Made by a program: the position numbers and the translations under genes
In this document: piece by piece, positions 26,471 to 34,956 of the stretch
How positions within the stretch are numbered: the first letter of the stretch is position 1
Layout of the letters: the number at the start of each line of letters is the position of its first letter
Notes under the pieces: generated by a model
What the model saw: only the letters and a program-made list of their open reading frames with translations
The model's database searches: none
Told to the model about the DNA's origin: nothing
From: Vulcanimicrobiota bacterium
GTDB taxonomy: Bacteria > Vulcanimicrobiota > Vulcanimicrobiia > Vulcanimicrobiales > Vulcanimicrobiaceae
Direction: 5' to 3'
Assembly: GCA_963820825.1 (NCBI GenBank)
Contig: CAWGBN010000008.1
Location: forward strand, 128,001-192,000
Length of the DNA stretch: 64,000 nt

Positions 26471-26764
26471 ATGTATACAGACGAAATGCTCACGTGCGTT
26501 GACTGCGGAGCGCAGTTCCCCTTTACCGCCGGCGAGCAAGAGTTCTTCGCGATGAAGGGCTTTACCAATAAGCCGAGCCGTTGCACCGACTGCCGCGCCG
26601 CCCGCAAGGCGGGTCGCAGCCCGAACGGCGGCCGCGGTATGGCACGCGAGATGTTCAAGGCAACCTGCAGCCAGTGCGGCGGCGTTGCCGAGGTCCCGTT
26701 CCAGCCGCGCGGCGATAAGCCGGTCTACTGCCGCGACTGCTTCAGCAGCCGGCGCGCATACTAG
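26471..26764 (+). CDS. Zinc-ribbon + CxxC-x17-CxxC domain protein
   Basis: LTCVDCGAQFPFTAGEQEFF..KGF.NKPSRCTDCR and REMFKATCSQCG..AEVPFQPRGDKPVYCRDCF. Confidence 0.9.
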   Translation: MYTDEMLTCVDCGAQFPFTAGEQEFFAMKGFTNKPSRCTDCRAARKAGRSPNGGRGMAREMFKATCSQCGGVAEVPFQPRGDKPVYCRDCFSSRRAY

Positions 26765-26794
26765 CTACTCGCCGCTTAGCGAACGACTAGTTCG

Positions 26795-26823
26795 AAAGAG
26801 CCTGCCTCGGCAGGCTCTTTTTT
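26795..26823 (+). terminator. Intrinsic terminator
   Basis: AAAGAGCCTGCC-TC-GGCAGGCTCTTT followed by TTT. Confidence 0.85.
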
Positions 26824-26881
26824 GTCTCCGCGCCAAATCGCCAAGACGTCCTCAAACGATATCGGCGCGAAGTGGAGCGGC

Positions 26882-27724
26882 ATGGATCGAATCTCTAGGT
26901 ACGGCACGGGCATCGGGCTCGCGCTGATTCATCTCGGTGCGCTTGCGGCCTTCATCCCGGCGTTCTTCCGCCTCTCGGACCTGATCGTCTTTGCAATTGT
27001 GTCGTATTGCACGGGGGTTCTGGGCGTTACGCTCTGCTACCACCGCGTGTTGACGCATCGGAGTCTGCGGCTACGCAAGCCGCTCGAATACTGCTTCGCA
27101 CTCTTCGGAACGCTGGCGCTGCAAGGCGATCCGATTCGGTGGGTTGCGGTTCATCGCAAGCATCACGCCCACGCCGATCACGACGGCGATCCCCACAGTA
27201 TCGGGCTCGGCTTCAAATGGGCCCACGTCGACTGGCTCTACCGCCACAACATCGCCTATCCGTCCCCCGAGGAGATCGCGCGCTACGCGCCCGACCTCTC
27301 CGCCGACCCCTTCTACCGCGCGCTGGCCCGCCTGGCCTTACCCTTGCAGCTCGCCTTCGCGGCCGCGCTCTTCTTCCTCGGCGGCTGGGCCTGGGTCGTT
27401 TGGGGAGTCTTCCTCCGTCTCGTCTTCTGCTACCACTCGACCTGGTTCGTCAACAGTGCCGCGCACATGCTGGGGTACCGTACCTATCGCACCAGCGATC
27501 GCTCGACGAACTGCTGGTGGGTGGCCCTGCTCTCGTTCGGCGAGGGCTGGCACAACAACCATCACGCCTTCCCGTTCTCGGCCCGGCACGGCCTGAGCTG
27601 GTTCGAGATCGACGTGACGTGGTGGCACGTCCGGCTGCTTGCCTTCCTACGCCTCGCCGACCGGATCCGCATTCCCAGCGAAATCACACGCCGCCGCCTC
27701 GCGTACGCAAACTCGCGTTCGTGA
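26882..27724 (+). CDS. Delta-9-type membrane fatty acid desaturase
   Basis: His boxes YHRVLTH, HRKHH, GEGWHNNHH; DGDPHS. Confidence 0.93.
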   Translation: MDRISRYGTGIGLALIHLGALAAFIPAFFRLSDLIVFAIVSYCTGVLGVTLCYHRVLTHRSLRLRKPLEYCFALFGTLALQGDPIRWVAVHRKHHAHADHDGDPHSIGLGFKWAHVDWLYRHNIAYPSPEEIARYAPDLSADPFYRALARLALPLQLAFAAALFFLGGWAWVVWGVFLRLVFCYHSTWFVNSAAHMLGYRTYRTSDRSTNCWWVALLSFGEGWHNNHHAFPFSARHGLSWFEIDVTWWHVRLLAFLRLADRIRIPSEITRRRLAYANSRS

Positions 27725-27758
27725 GGTATACTCTCGGGACTCGACGAAGGGAGGCCCC

Positions 27759-27866
27759 ATGAAGAAGCCACGCGCGCGATACGAGCGCCCCGATTTTCAA
27801 GAGCATCCGCTCGGCGCCGAGGTAACGGCCTACCTTTCGGCACCGTTGCGCGATCCGAAGCTCTAA
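27759..27866 (+). CDS. pqqA: PQQ precursor peptide (35 aa)
   Basis: MKKPRARYERPDFQEHPLGAEVTAYLSAPLRDPKL with ExxxY motif (EVTAY); GGGAGG RBS; TATACT at 27727..27732; first gene of the pqq cluster. Confidence 0.9.
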   Translation: MKKPRARYERPDFQEHPLGAEVTAYLSAPLRDPKL

Positions 27867-27872
27867 GCCCAA

Positions 27873-28568
27873 ATCATCGCCGAGAGCTCCGGCCTAGTCG
27901 CGCGGCTGCATGCCGTCGGCCGCGAGCGCTATCACGACAAGCACCCATTCCACGAGCGGCTCGTCGCCGGAGCGCTCGACCGCGCCCAGGTCCAGGCCTG
28001 GGTCGCGAATCGCTATTACTATCAGAAGCAGATCCCGGTAAAGGACGCCGCGATTCTCGCCAACTTACCGTCGGCGCAGTATCGCCGCGCGTGGATTTCG
28101 CGCATCGTCGATCACGACGGCGACGGGCACGGCGAACCCGGCGGAACGGTCTCGTGGCTCGCGCTTGCACGCGCCGTCGGGCTCGACGAGGAGTACGTTC
28201 GCTCCGAGCGCGGCGTGGCGGCCGGGACGCGGTTCGCGGTCGACGCCTATGTGACGTTCGCCCGCACGCGGCCGTGGATCGAAGCCGTCGCATCTTCGTT
28301 AACGGAGCTCTTCGGGCCACCCGTGATGGAGCGGCGCGCCGCAGCCATTCTGGCGAAGTATTCGTGGATCGATCCTGCCGGGCTGGCCTACTTTCAACAC
28401 CGCATCCCGCTAGCGAAACGCGACGCCGATACGGCGCTCGCGTGGGTGCTTCAAGAGGCGACGACGCCGGAGATCGAGCAGCGCTGCGTCGACGCACTGC
28501 GCTTTAAATGCGACGTCCTTTGGTGCATCCTCGACGCGACGGCGCTTGCATGCGGCCTCTTCAAGTGA
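27873..28568 (+). CDS. pqqC: Pyrroloquinoline-quinone synthase; no canonical start codon (ATC assumed)
   Basis: Open frame from 27867: RYHDKHPFH, WVANRYYYQKQIPVKDAAIL, RIVDHDG, EAVASSLTELF, FKCDVLW. First ATG/GTG/TTG is at 28215, mid-protein. Confidence 0.88.
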   Translation: MIAESSGLVARLHAVGRERYHDKHPFHERLVAGALDRAQVQAWVANRYYYQKQIPVKDAAILANLPSAQYRRAWISRIVDHDGDGHGEPGGTVSWLALARAVGLDEEYVRSERGVAAGTRFAVDAYVTFARTRPWIEAVASSLTELFGPPVMERRAAAILAKYSWIDPAGLAYFQHRIPLAKRDADTALAWVLQEATTPEIEQRCVDALRFKCDVLWCILDATALACGLFK

Positions 28569-28828
28569 GAGACGACGCGCGGCCGCGATTCGGCAAGGGC
28601 GTTAAACTGCGCCGCGAATCCAACGGCAGCGCGATGCTGCTCGTTCCGGAAGCAGTGCTGGCCTTGAATCCTCCCGCGGCGACCGCGCTCGAGCTCGTCG
28701 ACGGTGACCGCACGCTCGTTGAGATCGTCGACGGCGTCGTCGAGCAGTTCGAAGTCGAACCGGCGCAAGCGCGCGAGGATATCGGCGGTCTCTTCGACCG
28801 GCTCGCCGAACGCGGGTTCGTGCGGTGA
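28565..28828 (+). CDS. pqqD: PQQ peptide chaperone (RRE domain)
   Basis: LLVPEAVLALNPPAATALELVDGDRTL; GTGA overlaps at both ends. Confidence 0.92.
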   Translation: MRDDARPRFGKGVKLRRESNGSAMLLVPEAVLALNPPAATALELVDGDRTLVEIVDGVVEQFEVEPAQAREDIGGLFDRLAERGFVR

Positions 28829-29886
28829 AGCGACCGCTCTCGCTGCTCTGCGAGCTGACGTATCGCTGCAACTTGCAGTGCCCGTATTGCTACAACCCGA
28901 TCGCGCTCGCCGCGTATCGCGACGAACTTTCGACCGAGCAATGGTGCGGCGTCTTAGAAGAGGCCGCGCGCCTCGGCGTTCTCCAAGCGCACTTCTCCGG
29001 CGGCGAGCCGACGCTGCGCCGCGACCTTCCCGCGCTCGTCGAAGCGGCGTCACGCGCCGGTCTCTACACGAACCTCATCACCCAGGGAACCTTTCTCGAC
29101 GAGCCGCTGCTCGAAAGACTGCTCGGCAACGGGCTCGATCACATCCAGATCAGCGTGCAGGCCCCGCAAACCGATCTCGCCGATACCATCGCGGGCGCCG
29201 CGGTCCACGAGAAGAAGATCGAAACCATCCGCCGGGTCGGCGAACGCGAGGTCGCGCTCACGCTCAACTGCGTTCTCCATCGCCGCAATCACGACGAAAT
29301 CGCCGGCGTCATCGAGCTCGCCGAACGCTACGGCATACGGCGGCTGGAACTCGCGAACGTTCAGTTTTATGGATGGGCCTTTCGCAATCGCGAAGCGCTG
29401 ATGCCCACGCGCGAACAGGTTCGCCGCGCGCAAGAGATCGTCGAGGCGGCGCGCGAGCGCCTGCGCGGAGCGATGGAGATCGTCTACGTCCTTCCCGACT
29501 ACTTCGGCGAGTACCCCAAGCCGTGCATGAATGGGTGGGGCAACGAGTTCATGACGGTCACGCCGAACGGCGAGGTGCTGCCGTGCCCGGCGGCGGCGGC
29601 GATTCGGACGCTGCGCTTTGAAAACGTTCGCGACCGTTCGCTCGGTGAGATCTGGCGGAACTCCGAAGCCTTCGAACGCTATCGCGGCACGGCATGGATG
29701 CGCGAACCGTGCCGTTCGTGCGAACGCCGCGAGATCGATTTTGGCGGGTGCCGCTGCCAGGCGTTTCTTCTTGCGGGCGATGCGGGCGCAACCGACCCGG
29801 CCTGTTCGCTGAGCCCCCATCATTCGATCGTCGAGGCCCTCCGCGAGCCGGCGCCGGAGGTCGAGCTCGTTCCGCGTCGCGCGTGA
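28825..29886 (+). CDS. pqqE: Radical SAM PqqA peptide cyclase
   Basis: ELTYRCNLQCPYC, FSGGEP, QFYGWA, PKPCMNGWG, SPASM motifs CRSC...GGCRCQA...DPAC. Confidence 0.96.
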   Translation: MKRPLSLLCELTYRCNLQCPYCYNPIALAAYRDELSTEQWCGVLEEAARLGVLQAHFSGGEPTLRRDLPALVEAASRAGLYTNLITQGTFLDEPLLERLLGNGLDHIQISVQAPQTDLADTIAGAAVHEKKIETIRRVGEREVALTLNCVLHRRNHDEIAGVIELAERYGIRRLELANVQFYGWAFRNREALMPTREQVRRAQEIVEAARERLRGAMEIVYVLPDYFGEYPKPCMNGWGNEFMTVTPNGEVLPCPAAAAIRTLRFENVRDRSLGEIWRNSEAFERYRGTAWMREPCRSCERREIDFGGCRCQAFLLAGDAGATDPACSLSPHHSIVEALREPAPEVELVPRRA

Positions 29887-30797
29887 TCGTTCGCGTTCTC
29901 GGCTCGGCGGCCGGCGGGGGCGTCCCGCAGTGGAACTGTGCCTGCGCGAACTGCGCCGCCGCGCGCGAGGGCCGCGCACCGCGTCGCACTGAGTCGACCA
30001 TCGCGATCGGCCCGAAGGCGGCCGAAGGCAGACGCTGGTTGCTGCTCAACTGCTCGCCGGACGTCGCGTCGCAGATCGAGTCCTTTTCGCCGCTGCAGCC
30101 GAAAGATCGACGCTCCACGCCGGTCGCCGGTATTCTGCTCACCGATGCGAACCTCGACCATATCGGCGGTCTCGCCGTACTGCGTCAATCGGCGGACGAG
30201 CGCATCCGCGTGCGCTCGAGCGCCGTCGTTCGCAAGATTGCCTCGGCCCAGCCGAGTTTCGCACACTTTGTGTCGCCGCCGCACGTTTGGCTCGAGGTGC
30301 CGCTCGGCGAAACGATCCCCCAGCAGGGCGATGACGATGTGGTCGGCGATTCGCTGCAGGTGCGCGCGATTGCGGTTCCCGGAACGACGCCGGGCTACGA
30401 CGGCCGGCGGTCCGAGCGCGGCGCAGTCGTCGCGTACGAGATCTCCGATCGAGGAAGCGAGAATCGCCTGCTCTTCGCGCCGGTCTTCGGCGAAATCAAC
30501 GAAGCGCTCGCCGCTGCCATCGCCTCGGCCTCGGTCGCCTTTTTGGACGGCACATTCTATAGCGACGACGAGTTGGAGGCGACCGGATTGGGAACCAAAC
30601 GCGCGCGAACGATGGCTCACCAGCCGGTCGGGGGCGCCGGCGGAACGCTCGCGCAGATTCGCGATGCGAATGCTCGCATCGTCTTCACCCACCTCAACAA
30701 CTCCAATCCGATGCTCGAGTCGAAATCGCAGGCCTATGCCGCCGTGCGCGAATCCGGCGCCGAAATCGCCTACGACGGGATGGAGCTAACGCTCTAG
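29883..30797 (+). CDS. pqqB: PQQ biosynthesis metallo-beta-lactamase-fold hydroxylase
   Basis: VLGSAAGGGVPQWNCACANC, FLDGTFYSDDEL, HLNNSNP, IAYDGMEL. Confidence 0.95.
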   Translation: MIVRVLGSAAGGGVPQWNCACANCAAAREGRAPRRTESTIAIGPKAAEGRRWLLLNCSPDVASQIESFSPLQPKDRRSTPVAGILLTDANLDHIGGLAVLRQSADERIRVRSSAVVRKIASAQPSFAHFVSPPHVWLEVPLGETIPQQGDDDVVGDSLQVRAIAVPGTTPGYDGRRSERGAVVAYEISDRGSENRLLFAPVFGEINEALAAAIASASVAFLDGTFYSDDELEATGLGTKRARTMAHQPVGGAGGTLAQIRDANARIVFTHLNNSNPMLESKSQAYAAVRESGAEIAYDGMELTL

Positions 30798-30928
30798 TCG
30801 AAGAGAGCCTATTATGATCGCTCCGGTTGGCGACGGTGATTTCACCACCAAGGGCAGACCCCATTTTCACGCGGCGGATCGGGCGGTGGTCGATGGAAAG
30901 ACGCCCCTCGCATCGATTCGCTCGAGCC

Positions 30929-32938
30929 ATGACTCGTAGCCGTACGGTGCGCCCGTTGCCCGCGCTGGCAACGATTCCGCTCGCAGTGCTCGCGCTTACC
31001 GGCGCGGCGGCGCTCCAGACGATCGCCGAGAGGGATTTTCAACGGCTCGTTTCGATCGGTCCGCCGTCGATCGCTCCCGACGGAAAGCACGCCGCTGCGG
31101 TCGTTTCACGGATTTTATGGGACGAAGATAAGCGTTTGCACGATCTCGTGCTCGTCGACCTTACCACGATGTCGCAGCAAACGCTGCTCGTCAATCGTAC
31201 CGGGCTCTCGGATCCCGCATTCTCACCCGACGGTTCGCAAATAGCGTTCTTGGCCGACGACGGCGCAGCGAAGGACTCGCACACGCAGATCTTCGTGATG
31301 CCGGCCGCCGGCGGCGAGGTTCGCGCCGTGACGCATGGGAGCGTCGACGTCGAGCAGTTCGCCTGGCGCGGCGACAGCCACGCGTTTGCCTACGCGGCCG
31401 AAGATCCAAAGGACACACAGAGCGGATCCGACCGCTTTCGCGACAGTTTCATCTTTACCACCGAACCGATCGTCGCGCGCGAACTGCCCCGCGCCGTGCA
31501 TCTCTTCACCATCTCGCTCGACGACGGGACGACGACGCAGTTGACCGCCGGCACGCAGAGCGTCGCAACCGGCGAAGCCGAGTCGACGCTCTCGTGGTCC
31601 CCCGACGGAGAGTCGATCGCCTTCACGCTGGTACCCAATGCGATCCTCAACGATCAAAGCTACTCGAGAATTGCGCTCGTAGACGTCGCCGCCCGAACGG
31701 TACGAACGATCACCGGCGCATCCGCCTGGGAGGGCGACCCGCGATTCTCACCCGACGGAACGCATATCGCCTACTCCTGCGCGAAGGGCGACGATCAAGT
31801 CAACCTTACCGAAATCTGCGTTACCACGCCGCAGGGCGGCCGAGGCATTTCGCTCTCCGCGCGAATCGATCGCCCGATTGCCGCTGCCGCCTGGAGCCCC
31901 GATTCGTCGAGCCTCTATCTCCTCGCGCCGGATCGCGCCGCGGTCGCGCTCTATCGTGCGCCGCTTCACGGCGAACCGGAACGTCTCGATACCAACGGAA
32001 TCGCCATCGACTCTCCGCTCGCCGGTGCGGTGGCGCAGAACGGGACGATCGTCTTCACCGGCAGCGCGACGAAGCAGCCGCAAGAACTCTTCGAGCGCGC
32101 GCCGAGCGGCACGGTCACGCGAGCAACCGATTTCAATGCGGCCATCGCCAAGCTCGATCTGGCGAGCGCGCAGCGCATTACCTTCCCGACGTCGACGGGA
32201 ACGCGCGCCGACGGCGTGCTCTACTCTCCGCCGGGCTTTTCGCCGGGTAAGCGATATCCGCTCGTCGTCTTCATTCACGGCGGCCCGACGAGCTCGTCGG
32301 CGTTGACCTTCAGCATGATGGCACAAGTGATGGCCGCTCGCGGATGGCTCGTGCTCCAACCCAACTATCGTGGGAGCGACGATCTCGGCCTGGCCTATCA
32401 ACGGGCCGTGCTCTACGATCCCGAAGACGGCCCCGGCAAAGACATCATCTCCGCCGTTGCCGCCGTACGCGCCCGCGGCATCGTCGACTCGTCGCGCATC
32501 GCGGTCTGCGGCTGGTCGTACGGCGGCATCATGACCGCTTGGATGATCTCCAGGTATCACATCTGGAAGGCTGCGGTTTCGGGCGCATCGGTCGACGACT
32601 GGACCGCCGATTACGGTACCGCCGACGACAGCCTCTCCGACGTCGACCTCTTCCACGGCTCGCCGTTCGTCGGCAACAACGGCGCCGAGTGGCGCCGCGC
32701 CTCGGCGATCGCTTACGTCGCCGACGTGACCACGCCGGTGCTCATTCTCTCCGACGTCGGCGATAACCGCGACAGCTTCGCGACGTCGTCAATGTATTGG
32801 CGCGCGCTTCGCGACAACCACAAAGACGCGACGCTGCGCGTCTGGCCGGTCGACGGGCACTTCCCGCACGATCCGGTGCGGGCCGCCGACGTCTATCACT
32901 ACTGGATCGACTACATCGCCCAGCATTTCGCTCGGTGA
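30929..32938 (+). CDS. Secreted S9-family peptidase (beta-propeller + alpha/beta hydrolase), paralog 1
   Basis: Signal peptide, WSPDG repeats, IHGGP, PNYRGS, GWSYGG, GDNRD, GHFP. Start uncertain. Confidence 0.9.
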   Translation: MTRSRTVRPLPALATIPLAVLALTGAAALQTIAERDFQRLVSIGPPSIAPDGKHAAAVVSRILWDEDKRLHDLVLVDLTTMSQQTLLVNRTGLSDPAFSPDGSQIAFLADDGAAKDSHTQIFVMPAAGGEVRAVTHGSVDVEQFAWRGDSHAFAYAAEDPKDTQSGSDRFRDSFIFTTEPIVARELPRAVHLFTISLDDGTTTQLTAGTQSVATGEAESTLSWSPDGESIAFTLVPNAILNDQSYSRIALVDVAARTVRTITGASAWEGDPRFSPDGTHIAYSCAKGDDQVNLTEICVTTPQGGRGISLSARIDRPIAAAAWSPDSSSLYLLAPDRAAVALYRAPLHGEPERLDTNGIAIDSPLAGAVAQNGTIVFTGSATKQPQELFERAPSGTVTRATDFNAAIAKLDLASAQRITFPTSTGTRADGVLYSPPGFSPGKRYPLVVFIHGGPTSSSALTFSMMAQVMAARGWLVLQPNYRGSDDLGLAYQRAVLYDPEDGPGKDIISAVAAVRARGIVDSSRIAVCGWSYGGIMTAWMISRYHIWKAAVSGASVDDWTADYGTADDSLSDVDLFHGSPFVGNNGAEWRRASAIAYVADVTTPVLILSDVGDNRDSFATSSMYWRALRDNHKDATLRVWPVDGHFPHDPVRAADVYHYWIDYIAQHFAR

Positions 32939-34956
32939 GCGCACTGCGACCGCGGTACCGCGCGCTCTTGCTGAGCTGCGCCTTCTCCCTCGTGGCCGCG
33001 GCACCGCTGCCCAGCATTCGTGGCGACGACTATCAACGGCTCGTCACGCTCGGCTCACCGGCGATCGCTCCGGATGGAAAGCATGCCGCGCTGATCGTCC
33101 GGCACGTCCTCTGGAACGACGACCGCCGCAGTGAAGAGGTCGCGCTGGTCGATCTCACCAGCGGCGCGGTGCAGACAATCGTCTCTAACCACACCGGGCT
33201 CTCGGATCCCATCTTCTCGCCCGACGGCACGCGTCTCGCCTTCGTGGCCGACGAGGGGAGCGGGAGTGAGACGCGCTCGCAGGTTTTCATCGTCTCCGCG
33301 ACCGGCGGCGAGGCGCGTGCGGTAACGCACGATACCGACGGCGTCGACGCCTTCGCCTGGCGCCCCGACGGCAACGCGCTCGCCTACACGGCTGCCGATC
33401 CGGAATCAGAGCGATCGGGCGCCGAGCGCTTTCGCGACAGCTTTCTCTTTACGACCGAACCGATCACCTCGCGCGACGCGCCGCGGCCGACGCACCTCTT
33501 TACCGTCGCGCTCGACGATGGGGCAACGACGCAGCTGACCTTCGGACTCGAGAGCGCCGCCGGCGGCTCGTCGATTAGTTGGTCGCCCGACGGCAAGACG
33601 ATTGCAATCACGCTCTGCCCTAACGCGATATTGAACGATCAGAGTTACTCGCGCGCGGTCTTGGTCGACGTTGCGACGAAACGGATGCGCCAGTTGACCG
33701 CACGCACGATGTGGGAGGGCACCCCGCTCTTCTCGCCCGACGGCGCGCACGTCGCCTACGCCTACTCCAGCGGCGATCCGCAGATCAGCCTCACCCAAAT
33801 CTACCTAACGACGCCGAGCGGAGGTGCGGGACGCGCGCTCTCCGCCGCGATCGACCGGCCGATCGGCGATTTCGTCTGGTCGCCCGATTCGAAGAGTCTC
33901 ATCGTCACCGCGCCCGATCGCACGACCAACGCGCTCTACCGGCTCTCGCTCGACGGCAGCGCGCGGCGGATCGACGTCGGAGCGATCGTTCCCGGCATGC
34001 CGTTGTCGACGACCGGCGGCGCCGACGCCCCCGCACTCGAAAGCGCGCTGGCCAACGATGGCACCCTGGTCTTTCTCGCCAGCTCGACGGCGCAGCCGCC
34101 CGAGCTCTACAAATACTCGCCCGACGGTACGACGACGAAGGTGACGGCCTTCAATGCCGCGCTCGCGCAATATCAGTGGGCCGCGGCCGAACGGATGACG
34201 TTTCCGTCGAGCACCGGCGTGACCGGCGACGGCGTGCTCTACCTTCCGCCGGGATTCTCACCCGCGCGACGGTACCCGCTCGTCGCCTTCATTCACGGCG
34301 GTCCCGACGACCCGTCGATGCTCGAGTTCGATTTTTGGGCGCAAGTAATGGCCGCGCGCGGATGGCTCGTGCTTCGTCCGAACTATCGCGGCACGCCGAA
34401 TCTCGGTTTGAAATACCAACGCGCGATTCTCTACGACCCCGAGGACGGCCCGGGCAAGGACATCGTCGCGGCGATCGATGCGGTTCGCGCCCGCCGCATC
34501 GTCGACGAATCCCGCGTCGCGGTCTGCGGGTGGTCGTACGGCGGCATCATGACCGCCTGGCTCATCTCGAAGTATCACTTTTGGCGCGCTGCCGTCTCCG
34601 GGGCATCGGTCAACGATTGGATTACCGACTACGGGACCGCCGACGACAGCCTCGCCGACTCCGACCTTCTGCACGGATCGCCCTTCGTCGGAAACGAGGC
34701 GGCGGAGTGGCGGCGCGTCTCCCCGATCTGGTACGCGCGCAACGTGACGACTCCGGTCCTCATTCTCTCCGACGTCGGCGACAATCGCGATCCGTTCGCG
34801 ACCTCGTCGATGTATTGGCGCGCGCTACGCGACAATCATAAAGACGCGACGCTGCGGGTCTGGCCGGTCAACGGACACTTCCCGACAGACCCGGTGCGCA
34901 TCGTCGACATCTACCACTACTGGATCGACTTCATCGCCCAGCACTTCGAGAACTAG
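32935..34956 (+). CDS. Secreted S9-family peptidase, paralog 2
   Basis: GTGA-coupled to paralog 1; same motifs and near-identical C-terminus (MYWRALRDNHKDATLRVWPV.GHFP). Confidence 0.9.
   Translation: MSALRPRYRALLLSCAFSLVAAAPLPSIRGDDYQRLVTLGSPAIAPDGKHAALIVRHVLWNDDRRSEEVALVDLTSGAVQTIVSNHTGLSDPIFSPDGTRLAFVADEGSGSETRSQVFIVSATGGEARAVTHDTDGVDAFAWRPDGNALAYTAADPESERSGAERFRDSFLFTTEPITSRDAPRPTHLFTVALDDGATTQLTFGLESAAGGSSISWSPDGKTIAITLCPNAILNDQSYSRAVLVDVATKRMRQLTARTMWEGTPLFSPDGAHVAYAYSSGDPQISLTQIYLTTPSGGAGRALSAAIDRPIGDFVWSPDSKSLIVTAPDRTTNALYRLSLDGSARRIDVGAIVPGMPLSTTGGADAPALESALANDGTLVFLASSTAQPPELYKYSPDGTTTKVTAFNAALAQYQWAAAERMTFPSSTGVTGDGVLYLPPGFSPARRYPLVAFIHGGPDDPSMLEFDFWAQVMAARGWLVLRPNYRGTPNLGLKYQRAILYDPEDGPGKDIVAAIDAVRARRIVDESRVAVCGWSYGGIMTAWLISKYHFWRAAVSGASVNDWITDYGTADDSLADSDLLHGSPFVGNEAAEWRRVSPIWYARNVTTPVLILSDVGDNRDPFATSSMYWRALRDNHKDATLRVWPVNGHFPTDPVRIVDIYHYWIDFIAQHFEN

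Follow-up and report, generated by a model that had tools for sequence, protein, structure and literature searches.

The natural starts other than AUG that have been described in bacteria are few; each is fixed and has a strong Shine-Dalgarno (SD) sequence. At infC (IF3) and at cvfC1, ccpN and citZ of S. aureus, a conserved gene is kept low by an AUH start, the sites being described as one fixed codon with an extended SD (PMC13009471). Reporters with the AUU and AUA sites of S. aureus gave, in the same source, about 10% of AUG, and initiation at AUC, AUA, AUU or CUG in E. coli is reported to be 1-2% of AUG (10.1101/063800). A second described device is termination-reinitiation coupling, where stop and start overlap or lie a very short distance apart and no SD is needed (PMC10666635, PMC2268962). 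For E. coli gene pairs, re-initiation is reported to weaken by 40-80% when the start is at +14 nt and to be almost abolished at +38 nt (PMC10666635), and IF3 is reported to be inhibitory both to non-canonical starts and to SD-less re-initiation (PMC2268962). The couplings presented in these two sources use canonical starts or engineered initiator tRNAs, with non-canonical restart only on inactivation of RRF. As to the pathway considered here, the Klebsiella-type pqq operon specifies the same proteins (TIGR02107, TIGR02111, TIGR02109 and TIGR02108) and needs an excess of the precursor; PqqA protein is given, after earlier work, as 20-fold over PqqC or PqqE (PMC2294125).

The locus described below lies in a window of 64,000 nucleotides, i.e. 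the whole stretch of DNA that was analysed. Its gene order, A-C-D-E-B, distinguishes it from the Klebsiella-type operon. In contrast to the infC, cvfC1, ccpN and citZ sites, its pqqC has no SD, adjoins an upstream stop codon and has a candidate start that varies by species; in contrast to the published couplings, the putative restart codon is near-cognate and the operon is natural. Taken singly, non-AUG starts, translational coupling and an excess of PqqA are all known. What is new is the combination, namely a clade-wide, SD-less, codon-degenerate start behind a precursor peptide, echoed in other genes. A search of the open-access literature (titles and abstract openings) found no report of a start-less pqqC or of start-codon usage in the phylum.

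The pqq operon of the window

The operon is ordered desaturase - pqqA - pqqC - pqqD - pqqE - pqqB, with the following features.

26882..27724, + strand: DesA-family fatty acid desaturase (PF00487; NF049918 below cut-off), directly 5' of pqqA
27750..27754, + strand: SD site of pqqA, GGAGG (from the sequence; the 3' end of the genome's 16S rRNA has the CCUCC anti-SD)
27759..27866, + strand: pqqA, precursor peptide of 35 aa (TIGR02107, 26.8 bits versus a cut-off of 20; E-V-T-A-Y core)
27867..27872, + strand: spacer of 6 nt from the pqqA stop to the proposed pqqC start, with no SD and no hairpin
27873..27875, + strand: proposed near-cognate pqqC start ATC (alternative: ATC 27876-27878)
27873..28568, + strand: pqqC, PQQ synthase of 231 aa from the proposed start (TIGR02111, PF03070, solved PqqC chains)
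28215..28217, + strand: GTG, first canonical codon in the pqqC frame (from the sequence)
28565..28828, + strand: pqqD-like chaperone (TIGR03859, 38.5 bits, below the cut-off of 46), with a GTG start over the pqqC stop (GTGA)
28825..29886, + strand: pqqE, radical SAM enzyme (TIGR02109), GTGA overlap with pqqD
29883..30797, + strand: pqqB (TIGR02108), GTGA overlap with pqqE

The PqqA peptide has the E-x-x-x-Y arrangement (EVTAY) and its tail reads P-K-L before the stop, TAA 27864-27866; a motif scan found a single pqqA copy in this 85%-complete genome. By gene order, the desaturase directly precedes pqqA in the four genus loci compared, and does so too in genera g36 and g65. The three downstream junctions (C-D, D-E and E-B) are all -4 GTGA overlaps of the kind seen in termination-reinitiation coupling. 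A promoter scan of 26500-31000 gave 0 sites, and the pqqA-pqqC junction has no terminator. A full-length PQQ alcohol dehydrogenase was not found with TIGR03075 in the 85% of the genome that is covered.

Two side observations concern the peptide. Two tandem genes of the S9 prolyl-oligopeptidase family lie directly 3' of pqqB (30929-34956) and are candidates for the PqqA-trimming protease. A P-K-x-stop tail (27855-27866 in the window) is present, with synonymous variation, in most loci whose pqqA is of the LGAEVTAY type and absent from those of the GFE type; this conserved tail could have a role in processing or termination.

The frame of pqqA stays open from 27867 to TGA 28566-28568 and codes for a full PqqC, with a predicted activity of converting AHQQ to PQQ. 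The match to TIGR02111 scored 309.2 bits versus a cut-off of 240 and covered profile positions 6-223. Alignment with the solved PqqC chains 5vrc, 1otw and 3hml spans residues 8-225 (E 1e-71) and begins at residue 8-16; the YH..HPF, NRYYYQ, DHDG, YF..R and FKCD.LW motifs are shared, and the N-terminus is shorter here. At the position which we take to be Klebsiella H154, the window's PqqC has Met and 5vrc has Ile; Met is also found there in ATG-bearing genera, hence it is not tied to the loss of the start. The first in-frame ATG, GTG or TTG is GTG 28215, 116 codons past the pqqA stop and 95 past the Y of the RYH motif, and a start at this GTG would drop the YHDKHPF, NRYYYQ and DHDG motifs. An earlier, sequence-only reading of this locus had pointed out the absence of any canonical codon over these 116 codons of the shared frame and the unfitness of GTG 28215 as a start; the open reading frame with its TIGR02111 match bears out the former, and the conserved N-terminal motifs that would be lost bear out the latter.

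Loss of the canonical pqqC start across the genus and related genera

The window's genus is Ca. Cybelea (Eremiobacterota/Vulcanimicrobiota), with its closest named relatives at 79-84% identity. PqqC was matched in 35 of 36 relatives from the genus, 15 of 19 genomes from the sister family and 47 of 200 genomes from the family. The 35, the window's own genome, 14 of the 15 (one unpublished genome excluded) and 40 of the 47 (3 duplicates, 2 unpublished genomes and 2 partial matches left out) were used, which gave 90 loci: 40 from the genus, 36 from other genera of the family and 14 from the sister family. Codon positions are counted relative to the Y of RYH.

Within the 30 codons preceding RYH, an in-frame ATG is missing from all 40 genus genomes. 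In 32 of them there is no ATG, GTG or TTG at all before the conserved first helix (marked by a nearly invariant Arg at -9); the other eight have GTG or TTG between -16 and -10, at Leu or Val positions, among them L134 with a GTG at -16. All 14 sister-family loci have a canonical pqqC codon; there the order is pqqB-pqqC and an SD is present in 93%. A canonical start is likewise found in all 20 of the remaining loci from the family's genera, at codon -21 in 14 of the 20. When the loci of the window's family are sorted by pqqA, those of the GFE[VI]T[AM]Y type have ATG or GTG in 17 cases out of 17, and so do three loci of the LGAEVTAY-type group (59 loci), L142, L155 and L168. The other 56 LGAEVTAY-type loci, from 9 genera, have no ATG; this start-less set was defined after the trait was seen, the genus count being the only prior grouping.

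The canonical start of pqqC has thus been lost across the genus and several related genera. The loss is confined to pqqC within the operon: at scorable loci of the LGAEVTAY group, canonical starts are found for pqqD in 56/56, for pqqB in 56/56, for pqqE in 54/56 and for pqqA in 57/58. The sequence-only reading, which dealt with one genome, was right that the start is missing and overlooked that the trait is clade-wide. On a tree of PqqC plus PqqE three changes are needed to explain the trait: the start was lost twice and regained once, by L142, which sits inside the larger clade (SH-aLRT 92). One start-less clade is, however, not rejected (p-AU 0.26). The idea that relocation of pqqB removed the pqqC start was rejected, because other genera with the same A-C-D-E-B order retain ATG or GTG. 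A separate oddity, the pqqA of genome G028 (L051), has Ile where its relatives have the initial Met; there are frameshifts at that locus and this is probably an error.

The segment ahead of the first canonical codon behaves as coding sequence. Over codons -12 to +54, comparison of 33 full-length genus loci, each with the window, gave a dS of 1.08 and a dN of 0.095 (ratio 0.088). Stop codons are absent from codons -14 to +95 in all 56 loci. Among the full-length start-less loci, YH..HPF is kept in 51/51, NRYYYQ and R..DHDG in 48/51 each, and FKCD.LW in 47/51. Because dN/dS is low, stops are absent and the motifs are kept, we conclude that the region 5' of any canonical codon is selected as protein.

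The pqqA-pqqC junction and the start of pqqC

Pairing with the anti-SD differed sharply between the two genes, with a median of -1.3 kcal/mol before the best pqqC candidate (51 loci) versus -8.1 kcal/mol for pqqA; it reached -5 kcal/mol at 8% of the 51 pqqC loci versus 76% for pqqA. A strong or extended SD before a weak pqqC codon was therefore not the pattern of these 51 loci, as the sequence-only reading had it for the window. A hairpin between pqqA and pqqB is known from other bacteria. The start-less clade has no counterpart of it: spacer hairpins of -25 kcal/mol or stronger between pqqA and pqqC were found in 6 of 11 ATG-bearing loci of the family, in none of 9 GTG-only loci and in none of 55 start-less loci, bearing in mind that the six represent three genera only and that short spacers cannot hold hairpins. 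Two of the six have U-rich tails (7 of 10). L142, the ATG locus nested in the start-less clade, has a spacer hairpin of -27.7 kcal/mol. This distribution suggests that a spacer hairpin and a weak start may be alternative devices for a step-down in expression. In the other five ATG loci and all nine GTG-only loci the spacer is short and free of hairpins, and an SD is mostly absent; hence many relatives manage with neither device.

To locate candidate starts, codons -23 to -15 were considered. ACG, ATH or CTG is present there in the pqqC frame of 46 of the 56 loci, versus 25 and 9 loci when the two other frames are read and 23.3 ± 3.6 after base shuffling, related loci not being independent. GTG is rare among the Val codons of this segment (1/30 versus 30% in the gene body), and the proportions of GTA (12/30 Val codons versus 8%) and of ATA (6/24 Ile codons versus 5%) are raised. 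The commonest candidate is ACG, found at -17 in 16/56. ACG as a selected start was nevertheless rejected, since it makes up 30 of 54 Thr codons in the segment versus 63% in the gene body; some candidates may thus be ordinary Thr or Ile residues. Avoidance of canonical codons is modest (4 observed versus 9.8 ± 2.8 in shuffles). Seven of the 56 loci are devoid of any candidate of a wider codon set between -24 and -14, and four of these have TTG at -12, where a canonical start may lie. No codon or position is universal, so that a fixed near-cognate codon at a conserved position was not found. The nearest wide-set codon, in a set that is broad and yields candidates only, is -23 to +17 nt from the pqqA stop in 50 of 55 loci and at +6 nt in the window.

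Some junctions are suggestive in themselves. L006, L013, L017 and L170 read TAACG where TAATG would be expected, and L147, L150 and L165 read ATAG in place of ATGA; both look like degraded coupling overlaps. ATC or ATA occurs exactly 6 nt past the stop in L001, L002, L003, L015, L026, L048 and L134. The window's I-I-A-E aligns by eye with the M-I-A-E of the ATG-bearing L168, and ATC 27873 is the best single candidate for the window's pqqC start, with about an even chance of being the codon used. The sequence-only reading had proposed this ATC or the one at 27876; what it overlooked is that among relatives the codon would be degenerate (ATC, ACG, ATA, CTG, GTA and others).

We consider it likely that the intact, start-less pqqC is translated by SD-less restart at a near-cognate codon after pqqA, which would lower the enzyme cassette relative to the peptide. 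Ribosomes would terminate at pqqA, a gene presumably well translated, since it has a strong SD and an ATG, and restart without an SD a few nucleotides away, most likely at ATC 27873 in the window and at ACG, ATA, CTG, GTA or similar codons in relatives. Since the weak, SD-less codon is near the pqqA stop, re-initiation is the simplest route. Little PqqC would be made per PqqA, and with pqqD, pqqE and pqqB chained to it by GTGA, the weak pqqC start would lower all four proteins relative to PqqA, the substrate peptide, of which one is consumed per PQQ made. Because each of the three downstream genes overlaps the preceding stop, the whole cassette is probably lowered, and not the last step alone as the sequence-only reading supposed. 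Of that reading's options, near-cognate initiation at ATC is the one that survives. As IF3 opposes both types of start, PqqC may be made in very small amounts, which may vary with IF3. The components of this proposal differ in strength. Initiation at a near-cognate codon is very probable and its dependence on pqqA termination fairly probable, and that the step-down between precursor and enzyme is the selected purpose we regard as evenly balanced. If true, this would be a different way to set the substrate to enzyme ratio in a peptide-derived cofactor pathway.

Several other explanations were weighed. Sequencing error or a pseudogene, to which the apparent frameshifts of the assembly (rsmH in two pieces, rsmD partial) and a start-less tmk private to it (1/29) could lend colour, has a negligible probability, for the loss in pqqC is common to 40 separate genomes, dN/dS is 0.09 and the motifs are kept; the ATG>ATC mutation or sequencing error that the sequence-only reading listed as one option is excluded by the absence of ATG in 40/40 genus genomes together with the purifying selection. 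As to junction reads, two DNA runs contain 5-7% of the sequence words, no RNA run was among the matches, and none of the contig pieces seen at 80% likeness (16 of 48) spans 27864-27880, so that the reads carry no weight either way. The same reading had also envisaged readthrough of the pqqA TAA to give a 269-residue PqqA-PqqC fusion. The two genes are in frame in the window. Among the 39 genus loci where pqqA could be scored, however, pqqC is at frame 0, +1 or +2 relative to it in 18, 9 and 12; the 40th, cut by a contig end, is at +1. With 21 of the 39 out of frame, in both directions, a shared frame in 18 of 40 is incidental. The pqqA stop is moreover mixed (TAA 26, TAG 25 and TGA 4 of 55 loci), and the 21 junctions folded share neither a fold nor a 3' stop context. 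Readthrough as a general mechanism is refuted on these comparative grounds, and a fusion is highly improbable. Free variation of frame and spacing, which the earlier reading had named as evidence against its proposals, is indeed what relatives show; it disposes of the fusion and leaves near-cognate initiation standing. Spacing does vary within bounds, the pqqA stop being 35-95 nt 5' of the RYH tyrosine at all 55 scorable loci of the start-less group, from which we conclude that the pqqC start region stays beside the pqqA stop. In L018, L021 and L028, with 32 nt between stop and Y, the end of pqqA runs, in another frame, into the stretch that codes for the first helix of PqqC. C-to-U editing of the RNA, which would turn ACG, GCG and UCG into AUG, GUG and UUG, could account for the frequency of ACG in pqqC (16/56 at -17) and of NCG in queD, where 12 of 19 genus loci have it in place of the Met codon (see below). 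It could not repair the window's ATC, nor the ATC, ATA, GTA, CTG or GTC of many loci, and we know of no editing of start codons in bacterial mRNA; we hold it to be exceedingly unlikely.

The two remaining rivals keep the near-cognate start and differ as to what surrounds it. The start could be made de novo, independently of pqqA termination, or ribosomes on pqqA could merely keep the region unfolded. In L018, L021 and L028 the only ACG, ATH or CTG candidate (ACG at -17) lies inside pqqA, 5' of its stop, and the junction of the window can form a fold that covers the candidate codons (-34.6 kcal/mol over 81 nt, a value taken without a shuffle control). Against this, there is no SD to bring a 30S subunit to the weak codon, whereas the non-AUG starts described for S. 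aureus carry extended SDs (PMC13009471), and no structure is common to the folded junctions; independent initiation is improbable. A serious rival to the step-down purpose is drift under permissive initiation: the mechanism would be the same and would serve no purpose, little PqqC being needed, near-cognate starts being tolerated, and the ATG having been lost and never restored. The free variation of candidate codon and position fits drift, as do the similar losses in several unrelated genes, the many ATG or GTG relatives that have neither hairpin nor SD, and L134 with its in-frame GTG. On the other hand, ATG never returns in 56 loci despite a highly diverged junction, where GTG is depleted, and the sole ATG locus inside the clade also has the -27.7 kcal/mol hairpin. 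Start codons are, besides, generally selected towards AUG, with switches to CUG or AUU put at 3 in 61,358 annotated AUG starts (PMC5622118). We therefore rate drift as rather unlikely, if still to be reckoned with.

Apparent degenerate starts in other genes

This genome was screened against 1.2 Mb from two relatives in the genus, in 682 pairs that include some antisense shadow frames. Of the 25 pairs flagged, four were judged by eye to be genuine start-less genes common to the genomes, namely pqqC, queD, pckA and one that is ymdB-like (TIGR00282). The start-less share is at least roughly 0.6-1%, a figure obtained without a matched control phylum. An earlier pass over 283 pairs had also pointed out scpA and a secreted protein. 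The genes other than pqqC are as follows.

L192:1931-2296; G000:C7:304430-304795, + strand: queD (TIGR03367), after the TAA of a dihydrolipoamide acyltransferase gene, with GCG at the Met position
L302; G000:C2:360754-361536, - strand: ymdB-like metallophosphoesterase (TIGR00282), no canonical start in 19 of 24 genera
L331; G000:C5:77345-78916, + strand: pckA, ATT behind AGGAGG
L194:1074-1841, - strand: scpA, apparent CTG start overlapping the upstream TGA (CTGA), in this genome and G030
L196:811-1626, + strand: protein with a signal-peptide-like N-terminus, apparent ATC start behind GGAG, in this genome and G030; no NCBIfam match at E 1e-10

The SD of queD lies inside the last codons of the upstream dihydrolipoamide acyltransferase gene. 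In 19 of the 35 matched genus genomes, the codon at the Met position was GCG (7), GTC (4), TCG (3), ACG (2), CTG (1), ATT (1) or ATG (1), in most cases with AAGGAG or GAGG ahead of it. Alternatively, initiation could take place at an ATH two codons further on, which 16 of the 19 possess. Outside the genus, queD has ATG or GTG in 7/7 loci. For the ymdB-like gene, 28 matches less 3 unpublished and 1 without the motif left 24 loci from different genera, where the homologous site, read by eye, was ATA (12), CTA (3), CTG (3), GTA (2), TTA (1) or ATG (1), with 2 unclear. For pckA, 29 loci were reduced to 17 by exclusion of 4 without the motif and 8 with a longer N-terminus; in 11 of these an ATH follows a purine-rich site and no canonical codon precedes it, 1 has ATG at that place and in 5 a canonical codon lies slightly upstream. 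The infC gene of this genome starts at ATA behind GGAG(G).

It is conceivable, and in our estimate somewhat doubtful, that the family routinely sets expression by degenerate starts and that in pqqC an SD-less restart replaced a transcription hairpin as the device for the precursor to enzyme ratio. The initiator at pqqC, queD, pckA, the ymdB-like gene and possibly scpA would then swap freely, with or without an SD, among ATH, ACG, CTG, NTA, GTC and even GCG or TCG. This would mean that start codons are chosen with unusual permissiveness by a machinery whose IF3, IF1 and initiator tRNA look ordinary, and the companion genes would offer a natural start-codon series at one homologous site. In practical terms, gene callers restricted to ATG, GTG and TTG would report a PqqC of only 117 aa here and misplace the starts of queD, pckA and the ymdB-like gene; the synthesis of PQQ and of queuosine could consequently be under-called in an abundant soil phylum.

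A further candidate, tmk (L193:1158-1790, - strand), was rejected as a second start-less case, being private to this genome (1/29) and possibly an assembly error. Given this and the apparent frameshifts of the assembly, start-less cases seen in a single genome are unreliable. An SDR gene (L195:1163-1930, - strand) has GTA where G030 has GTG, and this too may be an assembly error.

No sign of an altered initiation machinery was seen in IF3, IF1, the initiator tRNA or four genes for rRNA methylases, all of which look ordinary. IF3 keeps Y75, K110 and R131, presumably the fidelity positions of E. coli IF3, and its sequence is much alike in start-less and ATG genera; the three G-C pairs of the initiator tRNA are present. 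The 16S 1338-region motif was not matched by the pattern used. The ksgA, rsmH, rsmI, rsmD and infA genes were found in 5/5 genomes. The split rsmH and the partial rsmD of this genome (G000:C6:91770-92631 and C5:154941-155327) are intact in four relatives and probably reflect consensus indels. Matches to infA (IF1) above the cut-off number three in this genome (G000:C1:51424, C8:15053 and C8:512974), two each in G029 and G022 and one each in G199 and G044.
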